A stretch of 60,810 nucleotides of DNA from Gammaproteobacteria bacterium (GTDB taxonomy: Bacteria > Pseudomonadota > Gammaproteobacteria > GCA-001735895), in assembly GCA_051277905.1 (NCBI GenBank), contig JBNMQI010000001.1, forward strand, positions 1-60,810, read 5' to 3'. Position 1 is the first letter of the stretch, and the number at the start of each line of letters is the position of its first letter. The notes beneath the pieces were generated by a model. That model searched no databases. It worked only from the letters and a program-made list of their open reading frames with translations, and was not told the origin of the DNA. Positions 38,630 to 47,524 of this stretch are shown here, one piece after another. The position numbers were made by a program, and so were the translations under genes.

Positions 38630-40210
38630 ATGACAAGCTTGCAACAACGTGCCGAACTTCAACGCCAAATCTGGGCGATTGCCAACGATGTGCGTGGCTC
38701 AGTGGATGGCTGGGATTTTAAACAATATGTACTGGGAACGCTGTTCTACCGTTTTATCAGTGAAAACTTTGAAGCCTACATCACAGGCGGTGATGAAAGT
38801 GTTAATTATGCGGCCATGTGTGACGATGACGAAAACATCACGTTTGCTAAAGAGGATGCCATTCGTACAAAAGGCTATTTTCTTTACCCTAGCCAGTTGT
38901 TTAGCAATGTGGCGGCTAATGCACACAAAAACGAAAATTTAAATACGGATTTGGCGGCTATTTTTGCTGCAATCGAAAACTCAGCCAATGGCTATGATTC
39001 AGAAAAAGACATCAAAGGCTTGTTTGCGGATTTTGATACCACCAGTAATCGTCTGGGTAATACGGTAGAGGCAAAAAACAAACGCTTAGCCGCTGTGTTA
39101 AAAGGCGTGGCAGGTTTAACCTTCGGTAATTTTGAAGACAACCAAATTGATTTATTCGGTGATGCCTACGAGTTCCTGATTTCAAACTATGCCGCCAATG
39201 CGGGTAAATCCGGTGGCGAATTTTTTACCCCTCAGCACGTATCAAAATTGATTGCCCAACTCGCTATGCACGGCCAAACCAGCGTCAATAAAATCTATGA
39301 CCCTGCGGCGGGTTCGGGCTCTTTGCTGTTACAAGCCAAGAAACACTTTGATGCGCATATCATTGAAGATGGTTTTTTTGGCCAAGAGCTCAACCACACC
39401 ACCTACAACTTAGCGCGTATGAATATGTTTTTGCACAACATTAACTACGACAAGTTTAATATTCAGTTGGGTGATACCTTAACCGAACCGCACTTTTTAG
39501 ATGACAAACCCTTTGATGCTATTGTCTCTAACCCGCCTTATTCGGTGAAATGGATTGGTAGCGACGACCCAACCTTAATCAACGACGACCGCTTTGCGCC
39601 CGCTGGCGTACTTGCGCCTAAATCAAAAGCCGACTTTGCCTTCGTGCTGCATGCCCTAAGTTACCTATCAAGCAAAGGCCGCGCTGCAATTGTTTGTTTC
39701 CCCGGTATTTTTTACCGTGGCGGCGCTGAGCAAAAAATTCGCCAATATCTGGTTGATAACAACTATGTTGAAACAGTGATTTCATTGGCTCCTAACCTGT
39801 TCTTTGGCACCACTATTGCCGTGAATATTTTGGTGCTGTCTAAACACAAAACCGACACCACCACCCAGTTTATCGATGCCAGCGGTTTGTTTAAAAAAGA
39901 AACCAATAACAACGTTTTAACGGACAACGAAGACGAAAAAAATCCGGGTCATATTCAGCAAATTATGAAGGCGTTCGCCAGCAAAGAGAACGTGGATCAC
40001 TTTGCTAAATCGGTTGATTTGGACGTCATAGCAGGCAACAGCTACAACCTTTCGGTGAGCAGTTATGTAGAAGCGAAAGACAACCGCGAGCTAGTGGACA
40101 TTACAGAGCTTAATGCCGAACTTAAAACTACTGTCGCTAAAATTGATGCGCTTCGTAGTGATATTGATGCCATTGTTGCAGAGATTGAAGGTGAGGAGCT
40201 TGAAGCATGA
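38630..40210 (+). CDS. hsdM: Type I restriction-modification system, DNA methyltransferase subunit M
   Basis: 526 aa with an HsdM N-terminal domain (..[10 protein letters not shown]..), motif [11 protein letters not shown] and motif [12 protein letters not shown]. Confidence 0.95.
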
Positions 40211-41457
40211 ATCATTTGAGTTACATGGAAAAACTGCTAGATGGGGTTGAGGTTGAGTGGAAAAAGTTAGCTGATATTTTTCAGCTTAAGAATGGATATA
40301 CACCATCAAAATCAAAAAAAGAATTCTGGGAAAATGGAACTGTTCCATGGTTTAGAATGGACGATATCCGAGAAAATGGTCAAATTCTGGATGAATCGCT
40401 ACAGAAAGTCTCAGAGAGTGCAATCAAAGGTGGAAAGCTATTTCCTGAAAATTCAATAATAATTGCCACATCAGCAACTATTGGAGAGCACGCTTTGATT
40501 CGTGTTCCATTTTTAGCAAATCAGAGATTTACTAATTTGAGTTTAAAGCCAGTATATAAAGACACATTTAACAACAAGTTTATTTTCTACTACTGCTTTA
40601 TGTTGGCGGATTGGTGTAAAAAAAACACAACCATGTCTAGCTTTGCATCTGTTGATATGGATGGATTTAAAAAATATCCTTTCCCAATTCCATGCCCGAA
40701 TGATCCAAAAAAATCCCTGGAAATCCAGGCCGAAATAGTGCGCATTCTGGACGCATTTACCGCCATGACCGCCGAGCTGACCGCCGAGCTGACCGCCGAG
40801 CTTAACATGCGGAAAAAACAATACAACTACTACCGCGACCAGTTGTTAAGTGCTGAAAATGAAGGAGTAGAATGGAAAACATTAGAGCATATTTGTACCT
40901 CTATATCTGCTGGCGGAGATGTACCTAAAAATAGTTCTAAAGGTCAGACTGAGCCTACCGACGAATACCCATATCCAATTTATGCAAACGCTACAGGCGA
41001 AAAAGGATTATATGGTTTCACTGATGACTATAAAATTGACAGCGATGCAGTAACCATTTCTGCGCGTGGAGCAAAAGTCGGATACCACACTGTTCGAGAA
41101 GCTAAGTTCACACCAATTATTCGTCTAATTGTTTTAATAGCCAACAAAAATATAGTTAGTACGAGATATTTAAACTATGTTTTAGATATGACTCCCATTG
41201 GTGGTACTGAGGCTGGGATCCCGCAACTTACAGTTCCAATGGTCAAAAAGCTCACAGTTCCAATTCCTTTTCCAAATGACCCAAAAAAATCACTTATTGA
41301 GCAGGCTCGAATAGTTTCTATTTTGGATAAGTTCGACACCTTAACCACTTCGATCCAAGAAGGTCTCCCCCGCGAAATCGAGTTACGTCAAAAGCAATAC
41401 GAATACTACCACGACTTACTGTTGAACTTCCCCAAACCTATGGAGGAAACAGCGTAA
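40207..41457 (+). CDS. hsdS: Type I (IC family-like) specificity subunit S
   Basis: Two target recognition domains separated by conserved regions: ..[46 protein letters not shown].. and ..[52 protein letters not shown] overlap with hsdM. Confidence 0.93.
40768..40803 (+). repeat. Three tandem 12-bp repeats ACCGCCGAGCT(G/T) encoding TAEL x3 in the hsdS central conserved region
   Basis: ACCGCCGAGCTG ACCGCCGAGCTG ACCGCCGAGCTT, preceded by a partial ACCGCCATG. Confidence 0.95.
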
Positions 41458-43056
41458 ATGAGCGGTCAAATGTACAACCTGATCATGGCAAGCGTGCCTA
41501 GCTTTTACTCGGGCGATCAAGGGGAATTCACGATTCCGAAAGACAGGTTTCTTGAATACACGGAAGCCTCTATCAAAGGGCAATTTCAATCATTAGATCA
41601 GGGTGCAATAAATAAGCTCAAGAATCTGCCAACCATGTTTGCGGTCGAGGATGAAGTCGCTGATGCAAGAATTGGGAAAATTACCGATATTAAAGTTAAT
41701 TCTAATAATTTACGCATTAAATATAGATTTGACAAAGACTACTACCCATTAACCAGAGGGCTTCTAAAGGAGAAACAACAAAAATTAGATATCGATGATT
41801 TTGAGTTTCACCGGGGGCATTGGGCCGTTAAGAAATGTGATATTTCTGAATTTTATGGGGAGTATTTAAAATCGCTTGCAGGGATTGCCCATAAATTAAA
41901 GAATACTGATAAAAAGGTGCAGTTGATCTATGCCTTTAACGGCACAGGTAAAACGCGTTTGTCGCGTGAATTTAAAGAGATCATCGCGCCGAAAGACGAT
42001 GGGCAAGATGCGCTTGACGATGCAGAGCAAGCGCCACTGTCACGCCACAAGATTTTGTATTACAACGCGTTTACGGAAGACTTGTTTTACTGGGATAACG
42101 ACTTAGATGCTGATGCCGAGCCGAAGCTAAGAATTCAACCCAATACGTTTACCGATTGGATTTTGCAAGACCAAGGGCAAGACATGAACGTGATCAGCAC
42201 GTTCCAGCGTTATGCCAACGATAAACTAACGCCACGCTTTAATCCGCAATACACGGCTAAAGACAAAGACGGTAAAGACGTTACCGTCAAAGCCTTTTCT
42301 GAGGTGACGTTTTCACATCAAGGTGGCGATGACGAACCGGATAGAAAAATTAAAATATCAAAGGGTGAAGAAAGTAACTTTATTTGGAGTATTTTTTATT
42401 CATTGCTCGAACAAGTGATTAGCATCTTAAATGTACCAGAAGAAGCTGATCGCGAAACTGACCAGTTTAACCAATTAAAGTATGTGTTTATTGATGATCC
42501 AGTAAGTTCGTTAGATGACAACCATCTAATAGAGTTGGCTGTTGATTTAGCTCGTTTAATTAAGTCGAGTGATTTCGCTATTTCTGGCCTTAAGTTCATC
42601 ATCACTACTCATAATCCGCTTTTTTATAATGTTTTGCATAACGAGTTCAACAAAGCACCCAAGTTTGTTTTGCGCAATCTCGATGATGGCCAGCATGACC
42701 TGATTGAGCAAAAAAATGATTCGCCCTTCTCGTATCACCTGCATTTAAAGAATGAGTTAATGAAAGCAGCAGACTCAGGCGATATCCACAAGTACCACTT
42801 TAATTTTTTGCGAAATGTACTCGAAAAAACCTCAACGTTTTTGGGCTACGAAGAGTGGGGGGAGCTGTTGCCCGGTGTCAAAGGTGATCGGGCGGCAGGT
42901 AAAGTTAACCCGTATGCACGTGTGATTAACCTGTATAACCATGCAAAACACGCAGGCCATGAAGTGGCCGAAGTCGAAGAAGATCATAAGCGCGTCTTTA
43001 AGTTTTTAGTGAAAGAGATAGACAATATTTATAAAGGGACGAGAGCACCTTCATGA
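41458..43056 (+). CDS. ABC-type AAA ATPase with PrrC-like (anticodon nuclease-like) C-terminus and a unique about 150-aa N-terminal extension
   Basis: Walker A ..[12 protein letters not shown].. and Walker B/D-loop ..[14 protein letters not shown].. C-terminal ..FLRNVLEKT.. (R-x3-E) then ..[11 protein letters not shown].. The start abuts the hsdS stop (TAAATG). Confidence 0.7.
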
Positions 43057-43334
43057 GTAAACCTAACAAAACACACCTAACTAACATTCGCTCATCGGCT
43101 GCCGAGTATCTAACTTTTATCGCCGCAACCGGCGAAGGCGGTATTGAAGCGATTTATGCCGACGAGGATATTTGGTTAAGCCAAAAAATGATGGGCGTGT
43201 TGTACGATGTAGAAACTAATACCATTAACTATCATCTTAAAAAAATTTTTTCCGACAGTGAATTAGAAGAAAATTCAGTTATTCGAGATTTTCGAATAAC
43301 TGGCCGTGATGGTAACCATAAGGAGGCAGCTTAA
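43053..43334 (+). CDS. RhuM-family N-terminal fragment (93 aa; probably truncated)
   Basis: ..[48 protein letters not shown].. matches the start of RhuM-family proteins (about 330 aa as I recall). ATGA overlap upstream and TAATG overlap downstream. Confidence 0.6.
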
Positions 43335-44311
43335 TGGCCTATCAACCGCCGTTTACCATTACTAGTGAAATTGTCAATTTGGTGGCACAAATCAGCCAGC
43401 AGGTGGGTGAGTTAAACGCCAGCCAGCTCAATGCCTCGCCGCAACTGCGCAAGCAAAACCGCATTAAAACCATTACCGGCACGCTGGCGATTGAAGGCAA
43501 TACCTTAACCGAAGAACAGATCACTGCCATTGTTGAAGGTAAGCCCGTGCTGGGCAGCGTGCGCGAGCTGGCCGAGGTAAAAGGTGCAATTGCGGCTTAT
43601 GATGCACTGCCTAAATTCACACCCAGCTCCATTGACGATTTACTCGCTGCTCATGGTTTAATGCTGTCAGATATTCTGGTCAATGCGGGTGAGTTTCGCA
43701 GTAAAGGCGTGGGGATCCATAAAGCGGGTGTGGTGCACCACGTTGCACCGCCTGCGCATCAAGTATCCGGTTTAATGGCTGATTTAATCCAATGGCTCAA
43801 GCAAACAAAAGACCACCCATTGATCGCCAGTTGTGTATTTCATTACGAATTTGAGTTTATTCACCCCTTTGCCGATGGTAACGGTCGTATGGGGCGGTTA
43901 TGGCAAACGCTGATTTTGTCCAAGTGGCATCCGTTGTTTTTATCTTTGCCGCTAGAAAGTGTGATTAAAGACCATCAGCAAGCCTATTATCACGCCCTAG
44001 AGCAGGCAGATAACCAAGCGGATAGCACGCCGTTTATTCATTTTATGTTATCGGTTATTCAGCAAACACTTGCTCAAAACGCCTCTGTAAACGCCCCCGT
44101 AAATGCCCTTGTAAATTTATCTGAGCTTAAAACGCCTGAGGCCATTTTAGCCTTGCTTACTAGCACGCCCGAGCTAACCCGACAACAGCTCGCTGATACC
44201 TTGAATAAAGACGTTAGAACCATTGGTCGCGCCATTAGCAAGTTGCAAAAAGAAGGCAGGTTAACTCGGGTAGGTTCAGATAAAACCGGCCATTGGCAAG
44301 TCACTGAATAA
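43334..44311 (+). CDS. Fic family protein (AMPylase-type) with N-terminal inhibitory motif and C-terminal wHTH
   Basis: Canonical Fic motif HPFADGNGRMGR. A (S/T)xxxE(G/N) motif in ..TGTLAIEGNTL.. C-terminal ..LTRQQLADTLNKDVRTIGRAISKLQKEGRLTRVG.. Confidence 0.9.
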   Translation: MAYQPPFTITSEIVNLVAQISQQVGELNASQLNASPQLRKQNRIKTITGTLAIEGNTLTEEQITAIVEGKPVLGSVRELAEVKGAIAAYDALPKFTPSSIDDLLAAHGLMLSDILVNAGEFRSKGVGIHKAGVVHHVAPPAHQVSGLMADLIQWLKQTKDHPLIASCVFHYEFEFIHPFADGNGRMGRLWQTLILSKWHPLFLSLPLESVIKDHQQAYYHALEQADNQADSTPFIHFMLSVIQQTLAQNASVNAPVNALVNLSELKTPEAILALLTSTPELTRQQLADTLNKDVRTIGRAISKLQKEGRLTRVGSDKTGHWQVTE

Positions 44312-44374
44312 TGCGACGCCGTGGCTATTGCCATATTGGAAAACACCACGGCTAACAAAAAAGGATGTAAACGA

Positions 44375-47300
44375 ATGACAACGTATAAAACGGTTGCTGA
44401 ATCCAATAATTTTATTGTTTTGGATAAATACACTAAAGAATGGAAAGTTGCTGAGAACTTTCAAAGCGAAGGTGATTTAGAACGTGAGCTGATTCAGGAC
44501 CTAAGCAACCAGGGCTATGAGTATTTACCTGCGCTTACGACACCCGATGCCATGATGGCGAATGTGCGCAAACAGCTACAAGCCCTCAACAAGGTCCAGT
44601 TTACTGATGCCGAGTGGGCTCGCTTTTGCGAGCAATACCTGAACACACCCAGCGACAATATTCTCGACAAAACCCGCAAGGTGCACAGTGACTATATCTT
44701 CGATTTTGTCTTTGATGATGGCCATATAGAAAACATCTACCTGTTCGACAAGAAAACCATTGCTCGTAACAAAGTGCAGGTCATTAAGCAGTTTGAGCAA
44801 ACGGGCCAGTCTGCCGGACAGGCAGGAAGCCATGCCAACCGTTACGATGTGACGATTTTGGTCAATGGTTTGCCTTTGGTGCAAATCGAACTTAAAAAGC
44901 GTGGTGTGGCTATTCGTGAGGCGTTTAACCAAATACATCGCTACAGCAAAGAAAGCTTTAATGCAGAGAACTCCTTGTACAAGTTCTTGCAGCTGTTTGT
45001 GATCTCGAATGGCACCGACACGCGCTATTTTGCCAATACCACCAAGCGCGACAAGAACAGCTTCGATTTTACGATGAACTGGGCGAAGTCAGACAATACG
45101 CTGATCAAGGATTTAAAAGATTTTACCGCCACTTTTTTCCAGAAAGAGACCTTGCTTGAAGTAATCTTGCGTTACTCGGTATTTGATGTCAGTAACACCC
45201 TGCTAGTGATGCGCCCCTACCAGATTGCGGCCACTGAGCGTATTTTATGGAAGATAAAGAGCGCATTTAACGCTAAAAATTGGAGCTCTCCTAGTAATCA
45301 AAATAAGGAAAGCGGCGGGTACATTTGGCACACCACGGGTTCAGGCAAAACGCTCACCAGCTTTAAAGCGGCACGTTTGACCACCGATTTAGACTGTATC
45401 GATAAAGTCTTTTTTGTGGTGGACCGTAAAGACCTCGACTACCAGACCATGAAGGAATATCAGCGTTTCTCCCCTGATAGTGTGAATGGCTCAGACAGTA
45501 CCGCAGGGCTTAAGAGCAACCTGGATAAAGACGATAACAAGATTGTCGTTACCACTATTCAAAAGCTCAACAACTTAATCAAAAGCGAAAGCGATTTAGC
45601 GATATACAACAAGCAAGTGGTCTTTATTTTTGATGAGTGTCATCGAAGCCAGTTTGGTGAAGCGCAGAAAAACCTGAAGAAGAAATTCAAAAAGTACTAC
45701 CAGTTTGGCTTTACCGGTACGCCAATTTTCCCTGAAAACGCCTTGGGTGCTGAAACCACGGGCGACGTGTTTGGCCAGCAGTTGCACACGTATGTGATCA
45801 CGGATGCCATTCGTGATGAGAAAGTACTCAAATTCAAAGTGGACTATAACGATGTGCGCCCGCAATTTAAGAGCATTGAGACTGAGCAGGATGATAAAAA
45901 ACTGAGTGCAGCGGAAAACAAGCAAGCGTTTTTACATCCGATGCGTATTCGTGAAATCTCGCAGTATATTCTCAATCATTTTAATCAGAAAACTCATCGA
46001 GCTCATTCAGGTGCGAAAGGGTTTAACGCCATGTTTGCGGTCAGCAGTGTTGACGCGGCGAAAGCGTATTATGAAACCTTTAAAACATTACAGGCCGAGA
46101 CTGAACATGGCCCGACAAGTAAACCTCTGCGCATTGCGACTATCTTCTCATTTGCGGCCAATGAAGAGCAGGACGCCATTGGTGATATTTTAGATGAGAG
46201 CTTTGAAGTTAGCGCGATGAACAGCAGCGCAAAAGAGTTTTTGAGCGCCGCGATTAACGATTACAACGCCATGTTTAAATCTAACTATGGTGTGGACAGT
46301 AATGGCTTTCAAAATTATTACCGTGACCTTGCCCAGCGAGTGAAGAATCAAGAAATAGATCTGCTCATAGTGGTTGGTATGTTTTTAACGGGCTTTGATG
46401 CGCCTACGCTCAATACCTTGTTTGTTGACAAGAATTTGCGCTATCACGGCTTGATGCAGGCGTTTTCTCGCACCAATCGCATTTATGATGCGACGAAAAC
46501 CTTTGGCAATATTGTTACCTTCCGGGACTTGGAACAGGCAACCATTGACGCCATCACCTTGTTTGGTGACAAAAACACCAAAAACGTGGTGTTGGAGAAG
46601 AGCTACAAAGAATACATGGAAGGCTTTAACGATATTGTTACTGGCCAAGCGCGTCGAGGTTTTGTTGATATCGTAAAAGAGCTGCAAGAACGTTTTCCAA
46701 ACCCAGAAAATATTGAGAAAGAACAAGATAAAAAAGAATTTGCCAAGCTGTTTGGTGAATATCTAAAAGCAGAAAATATTTTACAAAACTACGATGAGTT
46801 TGCTGGATTAAAAGCACTGCAAAGCTTAGATACCAGTGATGAACAAGCTGTTGAAGCGTTCAAGTCAAAGTACTATCTGGTCGATACTGACATCGAGGCA
46901 ATGCAAACCATCGATATGCCGAGCGAGCGTGCTATTCAAGATTATCGCTCTACCTACAACGATACCCGCGACTGGTTGCGACGCGATAAAGAAGGTCAGG
47001 ACAAAGATAAGTCAACGGTAGACTGGGACGATGTGGTCTTTGAAATTGATTTGCTTAAATCGCAAGAAATCAACCTCGATTACATTCTTGAACTGATTTT
47101 TGATCACAATAAGAAGAACAAGAGCAAAGAAGGCTTGATTGAAGAAGTCCGCCGTATGATTCGCGGTAGCCTTGGCAATAGAGCGAAAGAGAGCTTAGTG
47201 GTTGATTTTATTAACCAGACAAATCTGGATGAGATCAATGACAAGGCCAGCATTATCGACGCCTTCTTCAAGTTCGCCCAGGCGGAACAGAAACGCGAAG

Positions 47301-47524
47301 CTGATGCCATTATTGCCTCTGAAAAGCTCAATATCGATGCTGCCAAACGCTATATTGCCTCATCACTCAAACGTGAGTACGCCTCTGAAAATGGCACTGC
47401 ACTTAATGAGGCGCTGCCCAAACTTAGCCCATTGAGCCCACAGTACCGAACCCAGAAGCAAACAGTTTTTCAGAAAATTGCCGCTTTTGTTGAGAAGTTT
47501 AAAGGTGTGGGTGGGCAGTTATAA
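44375..47524 (+). CDS. hsdR: Type I restriction enzyme, R subunit
   Basis: ..[12 protein letters not shown].. (Walker A), ..[10 protein letters not shown].. (DEAH-type motif II), ..FLTGFDAP.. and ..QAFSRTNR.. helicase motifs. Start set at ATG 44375 (AAGGA upstream) rather than GTG 44321. Confidence 0.94.

Follow-up and report, generated by a model that had tools for sequence, protein, structure and literature searches.

We analysed a stretch of 60,810 nucleotides from a gammaproteobacterium of lineage GCA-001735895 (GenBank assembly GCA_051277905.1, contig JBNMQI010000001.1, positions 1 to 60,810; this whole stretch is called the window below) and found a type IC restriction-modification (R-M) operon with three open reading frames (ORFs) between hsdS and hsdR. 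The explanation that we consider probable is that this operon, located on an integrase-bearing defence island, holds two intact embedded effectors, the anticodon nuclease PrrC and a Fic enzyme, together with one gene remnant, rhuM', and that an N-terminal domain of this PrrC (N-domain) provides a second control input. What the analysis shows is gene order, sequence family membership, domain distribution, recombination and junction history; what is said below of co-transcription, latency, triggers and targets goes beyond this by inference. PrrC serves as the textbook example of a suicide enzyme kept under guard by a restriction system, and to our knowledge T4 Stp in E. coli is the one case in which its way of sensing infection is known.

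The genes lie on a single strand in the order hsdM, hsdS, prrC (532 aa), rhuM' (93 aa), fic (325 aa) and hsdR (Table 1), and the ORF listing together with direct reading gave the ORFs between hsdS and hsdR as an earlier note on this DNA had described them. Two marks of type IC systems were found: HsdR matched PF12008 EcoR124_C (E=2.6e-72) and HsdS carries a central TAEL repeat. For hsdR we preferred the ATG at 44375 to the less likely in-frame GTG upstream at 44321, because identical contigs have a 1049-aa gene call. The junctions, all of which the earlier note had as overlapping or abutting, were read directly as TAAATG, ATGA and TAATG, but the fic stop codon and the hsdR ATG are separated by a gap of 63 nt and this junction does not abut. 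A consensus scan revealed no terminator-like site on the + strand between the operon genes. Inside the 63-nt spacer, at 44318-44352, there is an imperfect hairpin (GCCGTGG ... CCACGGC; 16-nt arms, 75% complementary), which is not a typical terminator, since it has no T-run. The cargo genes would be co-transcribed with the R-M genes. The surrounding defence island has an integrase upstream of the operon and a CapK/CapS-CBASS module downstream, and a decayed Mrr-like ORF stands upstream of hsdM.

Table 1. Features of the type IC R-M operon in the window.
Feature	Coordinates	Strand	Basis
hsdM, type I N6-adenine DNA methyltransferase	38630..40210	+	Pfam N6_Mtase 4e-115 and HsdM_N; NCBIfam hsdM equivalog 4.8e-193
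hsdS, specificity subunit	40207..41457	+	Pfam Methylase_S x2; PADLOC Specificity_I 3e-146; central TAEL repeat in translation
prrC, long form, 532 aa: N-domain, ABC ATPase and anticodon-nuclease domain	41458..43056	+	
PrrC N-terminal domain, residues 1-135, alpha/beta	41458..41862	+	signature RFLEYT ... LPTxFAxE ... RIGKITDI
PrrC C-terminal anticodon-nuclease domain, residues 401-532	42658..43053	+	R452, E456, R488, N491, H495
rhuM' remnant, 93-aa ORF	43053..43334	+	PADLOC PDC-S05 3.9e-35, residues 9-90
Palindrome, perfect 11-bp inverted repeat CAGTTATTCGA-N5-TCGAATAACTG	43276..43302		repeat search; inside 3' end of rhuM', 32 nt before fic ATG
fic, 325 aa, class II Fic, N-terminal inhibitory motif and winged helix-turn-helix (wHTH) at the C-terminus	43334..44311	+	Pfam Fic 2.6e-22, HTH_24; PADLOC SoFic 3.2e-49
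rhuM'-fic segment without counterpart in locus L002	43038..44395	+	blastn of window versus L002
hsdR, type IC restriction subunit	44375..47524	+	Pfam HSDR_N, SWI2_SNF2, T1R_D3-like, EcoR124_C; NCBIfam hsdR 1.3e-211

The 532-aa ORF matched the PADLOC PrrC model (E=9.2e-143) over residues 135-526 only, and this core was 66-68% identical, with 73-74% of the query aligned, to database proteins named 'anticodon nuclease'. Its ABC-type NTPase motifs, all of them invariant in the PrrC homologue alignment A1, correspond residue by residue to those of EcoPrrC: Walker A GTGKT at residues 162-166 (K165/T166 for K46/T47), the C-loop KISKGEES at 299-306 (K299/K302 for K168/K171), Walker B and D-loop at 344-353 (D346/D347 for D215/D216 and S350-D353 for S219-D222) and the H-loop TTHN at 383-386 (T384/H385 for T250/H251). 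The PrrC box, which is unique to the family and for which, as for the ABC motifs, the residues of EcoPrrC are listed (PMC3025547), lies at residues 201-215, where 14 of 15 positions equal the EcoPrrC motif (82-96) and E207, W212, D213 and N214 are present. In the C-terminal part, FLRNVLE occupies residues 450-456 and a second motif residues 488-498, and R452, E456 and H495 match the catalytic triad Arg320-Glu324-His356 of EcoPrrC (PMC1484252). These three residues are invariant across the 22 and 50 homologues of alignments A1 and A7; H498, the second histidine of the NHAKH motif named in the earlier note, is not invariant among homologues. Further residues essential in EcoPrrC are H295, H297, K299, R349 and N352; those present in the window protein include H427, H429 and K431 (YHLHLK, 426-431) and R488 and N491 (RVINLYNH, 488-495), and the protein also has NDSPFSY, the stretch belonging to the PrrC subgroup of E. 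coli (tRNA-Lys type). Together, the PADLOC match, the motifs and the R/E/H triad agree with the earlier proposal of a PrrC at its usual place between hsdS and hsdR in a type IC system, and at the level of sequence they strongly support the identification of the 532-aa ATPase as a true PrrC anticodon nuclease of the E. coli (tRNA-Lys) type.

Ahead of this complete PrrC stands the N-domain. The earlier note had an N-terminal extension of about 150 residues that it could place in no family; the extension is real and unmatched in curated libraries, but its length is about 135 residues. No Pfam, NCBIfam or PADLOC model matched it, with only chance matches to Pfam at E<=10, and a sequence search of the PDB returned a single chance match. 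The AF2 model shows a six-stranded alpha/beta domain at high confidence (predicted local distance difference test score, pLDDT, 94.1; predicted template modelling score 0.89). An exhaustive HMMER search over 1.84 billion cluster representatives (50% identity) found 610 relatives at E<=1e-3 and 181 at E<=1e-10, mostly with the domain at the extreme N-terminus of host proteins of 109-1109 aa. The family signature reads MYNLLV..W..RFLEYT...P.LFAYE...ARVG.IT.I...E..RTHWAVKDVDL, with invariant R, P, E, E, R, W and K.

What follows the domain, mostly an effector of the abortive-infection type, varies greatly. Among 105 relatives the fusion partners were CAP12/Pycsar-type TIR (PycTIR; 35), TIR_2 (15), Pkinase (9), Abi_C (7) and SEFIR (5), and further KAP NTPase, PNP_UDP, CHAT, Schlafen and others; 61 metagenomic hosts carried FRG (23), TIR_2 (15), CAP12-type TIR (4), SEFIR (2) and Abi_C (2), FRG being a predicted ART-superfamily NADase (PMC9503650). 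No recurrent partner gene was found beside the 61 stand-alone hosts, nor a methyltransferase among the 25 most frequent neighbour families listed, and, having no recurrent neighbour gene, these fusions look like single-gene systems. We also sought a tie to a validated system and dropped it, as the PADLOC models PDC-S35 and PD-T4-6 match the effector halves only and not the N-domain. In metagenome loci, two stand-alone N-domain fusions lie just downstream of ORF pairs, one of 450 aa after ORFs of 527 and 411 aa (L119:1014-5649) and one of 302 aa after ORFs of 526 and 271 aa (L154:2725-8184); the sizes of the upstream ORFs are typical of hsdM and hsdS, so non-PrrC members may also occur in R-M operons. 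Judged by architecture alone, the N-domain would be a portable input module, sensory or regulatory, and it is the promiscuous N-terminal fusion pattern that leads us to read it as a sensor.

To see how the domain is distributed on PrrC, we surveyed the best 120 PrrC database clusters and kept 80 PrrC loci from a species-representative genome collection. Two populations emerged, a canonical one of about 385-404 aa without the N-domain and a long form of 511-554 aa, which made up 47 of the best 120 clusters and 6 of the 80 loci. The extension, taken in the earlier note as new relative to known PrrC, is thus a recurrent feature, and it is conserved over its full length. hsdR lies directly 3' of prrC in 80/80 loci, hsdM-hsdS lie 5' wherever the contig extends that far, and all 7 long-form loci examined stand between hsdS and hsdR. 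The PrrC-fused N-domains formed one clade (support 97/95), a monophyly read from branch support only, and a single well-supported clade points to a single capture of the domain by PrrC. Identities along the window protein differ by segment: its N-domain is 93-98% identical to those of the six closest other long forms, with which its ATPase shares 65-83% and its nuclease domain 35-44% identity (35-47% for the nuclease domain against other long forms), whereas ATPase and nuclease domain are mostly 87-93% identical, with a minimum of 77%, to the four closest short-form PrrCs, whose sources include Vibrio parahaemolyticus, Proteus and Francisella (87-94% for the nuclease domain against short forms). 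This mosaic indicates that the prrC of the window is a recombinant, in which recombination has placed the N-domain on a short PrrC of the Vibrio type. For the anticodon-nuclease domain itself there are two or more allelic types that have diverged deeply, '...SHSKHAGEE...' (EcoPrrC-like) and '...SHSTLSNE...', which are 35-47% identical; their shuffling independently of ATPase and N-domain suggests swapped tRNA specificities.

The second intact cargo gene, fic, encodes a catalytic motif HPFADGNGRMGR at residues 177-188, which fits HxFx(D/E)GNGRxxR, and an inhibitory motif TLAIEG at residues 50-55 (TLAIEGN, 50-56), which fits (S/T)xxxE(G/N) and aligns with SLAIEN of PDB 4RGL. Together with the Pfam matches to Fic and HTH_24, these motifs confirm the description of a complete class II Fic protein with inhibitory motif and wHTH. 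The closest solved structure is 4RGL (E=1.2e-89), SoFic structures being found only at E=2e-13. SoFic, which AMPylates EF-Tu at switch I, also binds the promoter of its own gene, no more than 100 bp from the start (bioRxiv 10.64898/2026.07.09.737422); abortive infection is caused by a Sofic homologue. By analogy, the window Fic is most likely an auto-inhibited AMPylating, translation-blocking toxin. The palindrome upstream of fic (Table 1) has a counterpart in locus L201, CAGTTATCCGG...CCGGATAACTG, about 32-58 nt upstream of fic, in which two paired compensatory changes keep the repeat perfect; it may serve the Fic wHTH as an operator, or else form a hairpin in the RNA.

Exact-sequence look-ups of Fic and of the 93-aa protein returned only the same island, in marine metagenomes. 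The best 120 clusters of Fic relatives listed were 76-100% identical, their named sources being several gammaproteobacterial genera and Neisseriaceae. Comparison of sampled homologues (79-100% identical) revealed that fic is directly upstream of a type IC hsdR in 10 of 12 distinct contexts (Table 2), and in several other loci the coordinates give a 4-nt overlap between the stop of fic and the start of hsdR. The neighbourhood of hsdR in 10/12 contexts marks this Fic as a habitual R-M passenger of the 'PrrC slot', which argues against an independent hitchhiker unrelated to R-M, an outcome for which the earlier note had allowed. L205 further has, between hsdM and hsdS (L205:3796-4744), a 226-aa RelA_SpoT-domain protein and a 94-aa ORF, probably a toxSAS-type toxin-antitoxin pair, and a small Mrr_cat gene upstream of hsdM that echoes the decayed Mrr-like ORF of the window.

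Table 2. Genetic contexts of the fic gene in the window and in loci with homologues.
Locus	Source	Gene order
window	marine metagenome-assembled genome	hsdM-hsdS-prrC(long)-rhuM'-fic-hsdR
L200	Marinomonas dokdonensis	hsdM-hsdS-prrC(long)-fic-hsdR
L201	metagenome	hsdM-yhcG-hsdS-(29 aa)-fic-hsdR
L202-204	Vreelandella, vent metagenomes	hsdM-hsdS-fic-hsdR
L205	NCBI genome assembly	hsdM-RelA_SpoT-hsdS-fic-hsdR
L206	metagenome	decayed operon; fic directly upstream of hsdR
L207	Halothiobacillus	hsdS-rhuM'(102 aa)-fic-hsdR-rhuM C-fragment
L208	Marinomonas shanghaiensis	fic not in R-M locus
L209-211	metagenome	hsdM-hsdS-fic-hsdR
L212	metagenome	hsdM-hsdS-prrC(short)-rhuM(full, 347 aa)-fic-hsdR
L213, short contig	metagenome	rhuM (cut at contig end)-fic-hsdR
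L214	metagenome	fic not in R-M locus

Between the two effectors, the 93-aa ORF gave no match to Pfam PF13310 Virulence_RhuM even at E<=10. It aligns only to the N-terminal helix-turn-helix (HTH) region of full-length RhuM, with about 80 N-terminal residues matching PDC-S05, and is truncated after about codon 87; its last codons (HKEAA and the stop) are the Shine-Dalgarno sequence of fic, AAGGAGG, read in frame. Full-length RhuM (341-361 aa) stands between prrC and hsdR in four loci (L034, L037, L080 and L212), and in L212 the prrC-rhuM-fic trio is intact, so that the triple cargo is not peculiar to this genome. Two other loci are deletion derivatives of the trio. L201 shares the rhuM'-fic junction (88 nt, 81% identical) and has, at L201:6912-7001, a chimeric ORF of 29 aa, MSKTLTEIA + ESVIRNFRITVNEGKYKEAA, in which codons 1-9 of a short-form prrC are joined to the last 20 codons of rhuM'; this deletion scar indicates that the ancestor carried prrC-rhuM'-fic. 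In L207 the breakpoint differs from that of the window. There, a 102-aa N-fragment of RhuM (L207:5691-5999) lies just upstream of fic and a 191-aa C-fragment (L207:10103-10678) just downstream of hsdR, as though a rhuM gene had received fic-hsdR by insertion or by recombination across it. The operon of L002, a Thiotrichales metagenome-assembled genome, is otherwise about 90% identical to that of the window, and in it about 60 bp join prrC to hsdR.

Since its 3' end is the ribosome-binding site of fic and relatives carry either a full rhuM or deletion derivatives, the 93-aa ORF is, as far as sequence tells, recombination or deletion debris of a recurrent prrC-rhuM-fic arrangement, and was probably left over after a fic cassette joined rhuM. 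The earlier note was right in calling it a truncated RhuM-family ORF (only the N-terminal part of PDC-S05 is kept), but it is a remnant and not a third cargo gene. We also considered that RhuM might have a Fic-like C-terminus, which would explain a swap of rhuM and fic, and rejected it: hhalign gave only HTH-wHTH similarity, at 2% probability.

Other genes occupy the same place elsewhere. By eye from the translations, the prrC-hsdR junction holds a Bro-N-like ORF of 280 aa in L026:9333-10175, a YhcG/DUF1016-like ORF of 254 aa in L074:9222-9986, and two small ORFs resembling a HigB/HigA pair together with an hsdS fragment in L013:9959-10547. The prrC-hsdR junction is a cargo hot spot, and thousands of genes are embedded in type I R-M systems (Payne et al., bioRxiv 10.1101/2024.01.29.577857).

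By analogy with EcoprrI/PrrC, the R-M complex most likely keeps PrrC latent, and tRNA would be cut when a phage disables restriction; the N-domain would add to this a second control input beyond the R-M complex. Fic, if it resembles SoFic in function, would act on EF-Tu or on translation and regulate its own expression through the wHTH. The layered fail-safe proposed in the earlier note, in which R-M is backed by a tRNA nuclease and possibly by an AMPylating effector, is a plausible reading.

How the N-domain would act can be stated in more than one way. It may be a widespread and as yet unnamed trigger-sensing module that recognises a phage cue (protein, nucleic acid or nucleotide) and switches on whichever effector is fused to it, giving long-form PrrC an activation route independent of R-M and making it a dual-input guard; this we advance tentatively, with somewhat more doubt than confidence. 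If it holds, a near-identical N-domain on very different PrrC cores reflects the recent horizontal spread of a useful sensor. In another reading, which strikes us as improbable, the domain would be a PUA-like pocket (of YTH/ASCH/EVE/Lon-N type) sensing a modified nucleotide, for example m6-dAMP from the methylated host chromosome degraded by a phage, much as Metis and PUA-Cal-HAD do, so that long-form PrrC would be triggered by a product of the methylase of its own operon. The best Foldseek matches of the N-domain in the PDB are all PUA-like (YTHDF3 YTH with m6A RNA, Lon-N, SUVH6 SRA and the Lon-like domain of cereblon), long-form prrC does sit in an N6-adenine methylase operon, and m6-dAMP is sensed by PUA-like domains that occur as fusions with TIR, HEPN and other effectors, some of them in R-M operons (bioRxiv 10.64898/2026.01.15.699771; 10.1101/2025.11.05.686725). 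However, these matches are insignificant (E=0.04-0.3, template modelling (TM) score at most 0.48; the top match E=0.04, TM 0.45), hhalign against a 30-sequence EVE alignment gave a probability of 0.85%, the PUA-Cal motifs VWWGWWxKxxExxP and TPxYY are absent from N-domain sequences, most of the conserved residues (R, E, E, E, R, H, W, K) carry a charge rather than making up an aromatic cage, and no methyltransferase is among the 25 most frequent neighbour families listed for the 61 stand-alone genes; the designation PUA-like was therefore dropped on the Foldseek and EVE results. The same weak structural matches, the negative EVE comparison and the lack of any significant Foldseek match in BFVD also weigh against the explanation that we favour, as does the consideration that an oligomerisation or auto-inhibitory role fits the N-domain equally well; the domain may also already have been described in the literature. 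On the nuclease side of PrrC, the AF2 model of residues 388-532 is of moderate confidence (pLDDT 75.5), a sequence search of the PDB found no PrrC or RloC structure, and the best Foldseek match of the C-domain in the PDB, the HEPN homologue 1WOL, is insignificant (E=0.43, TM 0.39-0.44), which belongs with the points on that side. The PrrC/RloC-type nuclease domain is HEPN-like according to published assignment.

The coupling of the cargo to restriction can be questioned in turn. The cargo genes might be independent defence or addiction units, carried along at a hot spot of recombination in the R-M operon and linked to the restriction enzyme neither physically nor in their regulation. Unrelated cargo at the prrC-hsdR junction of other loci (RhuM in L034, L037 and L080 and the ORFs in L026, L074 and L013) and the many genes embedded in type I R-M systems fit this, full-length PDC-S05/RhuM alone protected E. 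coli (bioRxiv 10.1101/2024.09.26.614923), and two close Fic homologues, L208 and L214, lie outside R-M loci. The two last-named loci speak against our explanation, and so do the 63-nt gap between fic and hsdR, unlike the ATGA overlaps of other loci, and the score of the window Fic against the NCBIfam SoFic equivalog NF046030, 67.2 bits for a cut-off of 550, by which the SoFic target is not simply transferable to it. Yet experiments in E. coli have established that PrrC is coupled to the R-M enzyme (PMC1484252), the linkage is kept in all of the 80 PrrC loci, every long form included, and the Fic lineage stands beside hsdR in 10/12 contexts, often with the 4-nt start/stop overlap, so that we hold uncoupled passengers to be unlikely. 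Less likely still is that the 93-aa ORF encodes a small HTH protein with a function of its own, such as a regulator of fic or of the operon. The ORF is intact, its start is ATGA-coupled, it keeps the HTH segment (hhalign places RhuM residues 35-64 on the Fic wHTH), PADLOC has several short PDC-S05 models (82-141 aa), and in 5 loci fic is preceded by RhuM, whole or in pieces. Against such a role, the ORF ends in a read-through of the fic ribosome-binding site, all but the last 20 codons of rhuM' are deleted in L201 with fic kept, L200, L202, L205 and L209 are entirely without rhuM', the breakpoint differs in L207, and identical copies of the ORF occur only in the same island. An R-M operon with two embedded effectors, a remnant, and an N-domain serving as a second input of PrrC remains the explanation that we prefer.

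The closest known arrangement is the E. coli prr locus (EcoprrI), with the same order hsdM-hsdS-prrC-hsdR and the same R-M family (EcoR124_C HsdR, TAEL-repeat HsdS). The window PrrC shares with EcoPrrC the ABC motifs, the PrrC box, the R/E/H triad, the extra essential residues and the NDSPFSY stretch, but EcoPrrC and its short-form homologues (385-404 aa) have no N-domain, whereas 135 residues of it precede the complete PrrC of the window; unlike the E. coli locus, the window has rhuM' and fic between prrC and hsdR. Long-form PrrC offers a tractable system in which to search for the ligand of the N-domain, PrrC toxicity and tRNA cleavage being easy read-outs. With RhuM/PDC-S05 proteins of type I R-M systems, the 93-aa ORF has in common the N-terminal 80 residues (E=4e-35) and the prrC-hsdR slot; it differs in keeping only the HTH-containing N-terminus, without the Virulence_RhuM domain. 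The junction comparisons show the assembly and erosion of cargo by recombination.

Among class II Fic-wHTH proteins (Shewanella SoFic, PDB 3EQX; 4RGL; the anti-phage 'SoFic' systems), the window Fic has the same HPFxxGNGRxxR site, (S/T)xxxE(G/N) motif and C-terminal wHTH, and its palindrome lies less than 100 bp upstream of the fic start, the range in which SoFic binds its own promoter. It is, however, not a SoFic orthologue (67 versus 550 bits) and is much closer to 4RGL (E=1e-89 versus 2e-13), no AS1-like antitoxin gene is evident downstream of it, and its lineage is embedded upstream of type IC hsdR, a setting that we did not find described for SoFic; the word 'restriction' is absent from the SoFic preprint (bioRxiv 10.64898/2026.07.09.737422). 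A Fic lineage almost always wedged in this place suggests that R-M-guarded effectors reach beyond PrrC to AMPylating enzymes. The PUA-like m6-dAMP sensor domains of Metis (MisA) and PUA-Cal-HAD resemble the N-domain in being small N-terminal alpha/beta domains on diverse effectors (TIR, HEPN), sometimes in adenine-methylase R-M operons, and in a weak PUA-like likeness, but the N-domain shares no motif with them, is negative with the EVE profile, and its stand-alone members show no methylase linkage. That type I R-M systems harbour defence genes is known. The N-domain defines a large uncatalogued family associated with effectors; since it stands at the head of no fewer than seven further classes of effector, among them many that consume NAD+, it suggests an input domain used in prokaryotic immunity and so far listed in no catalogue.

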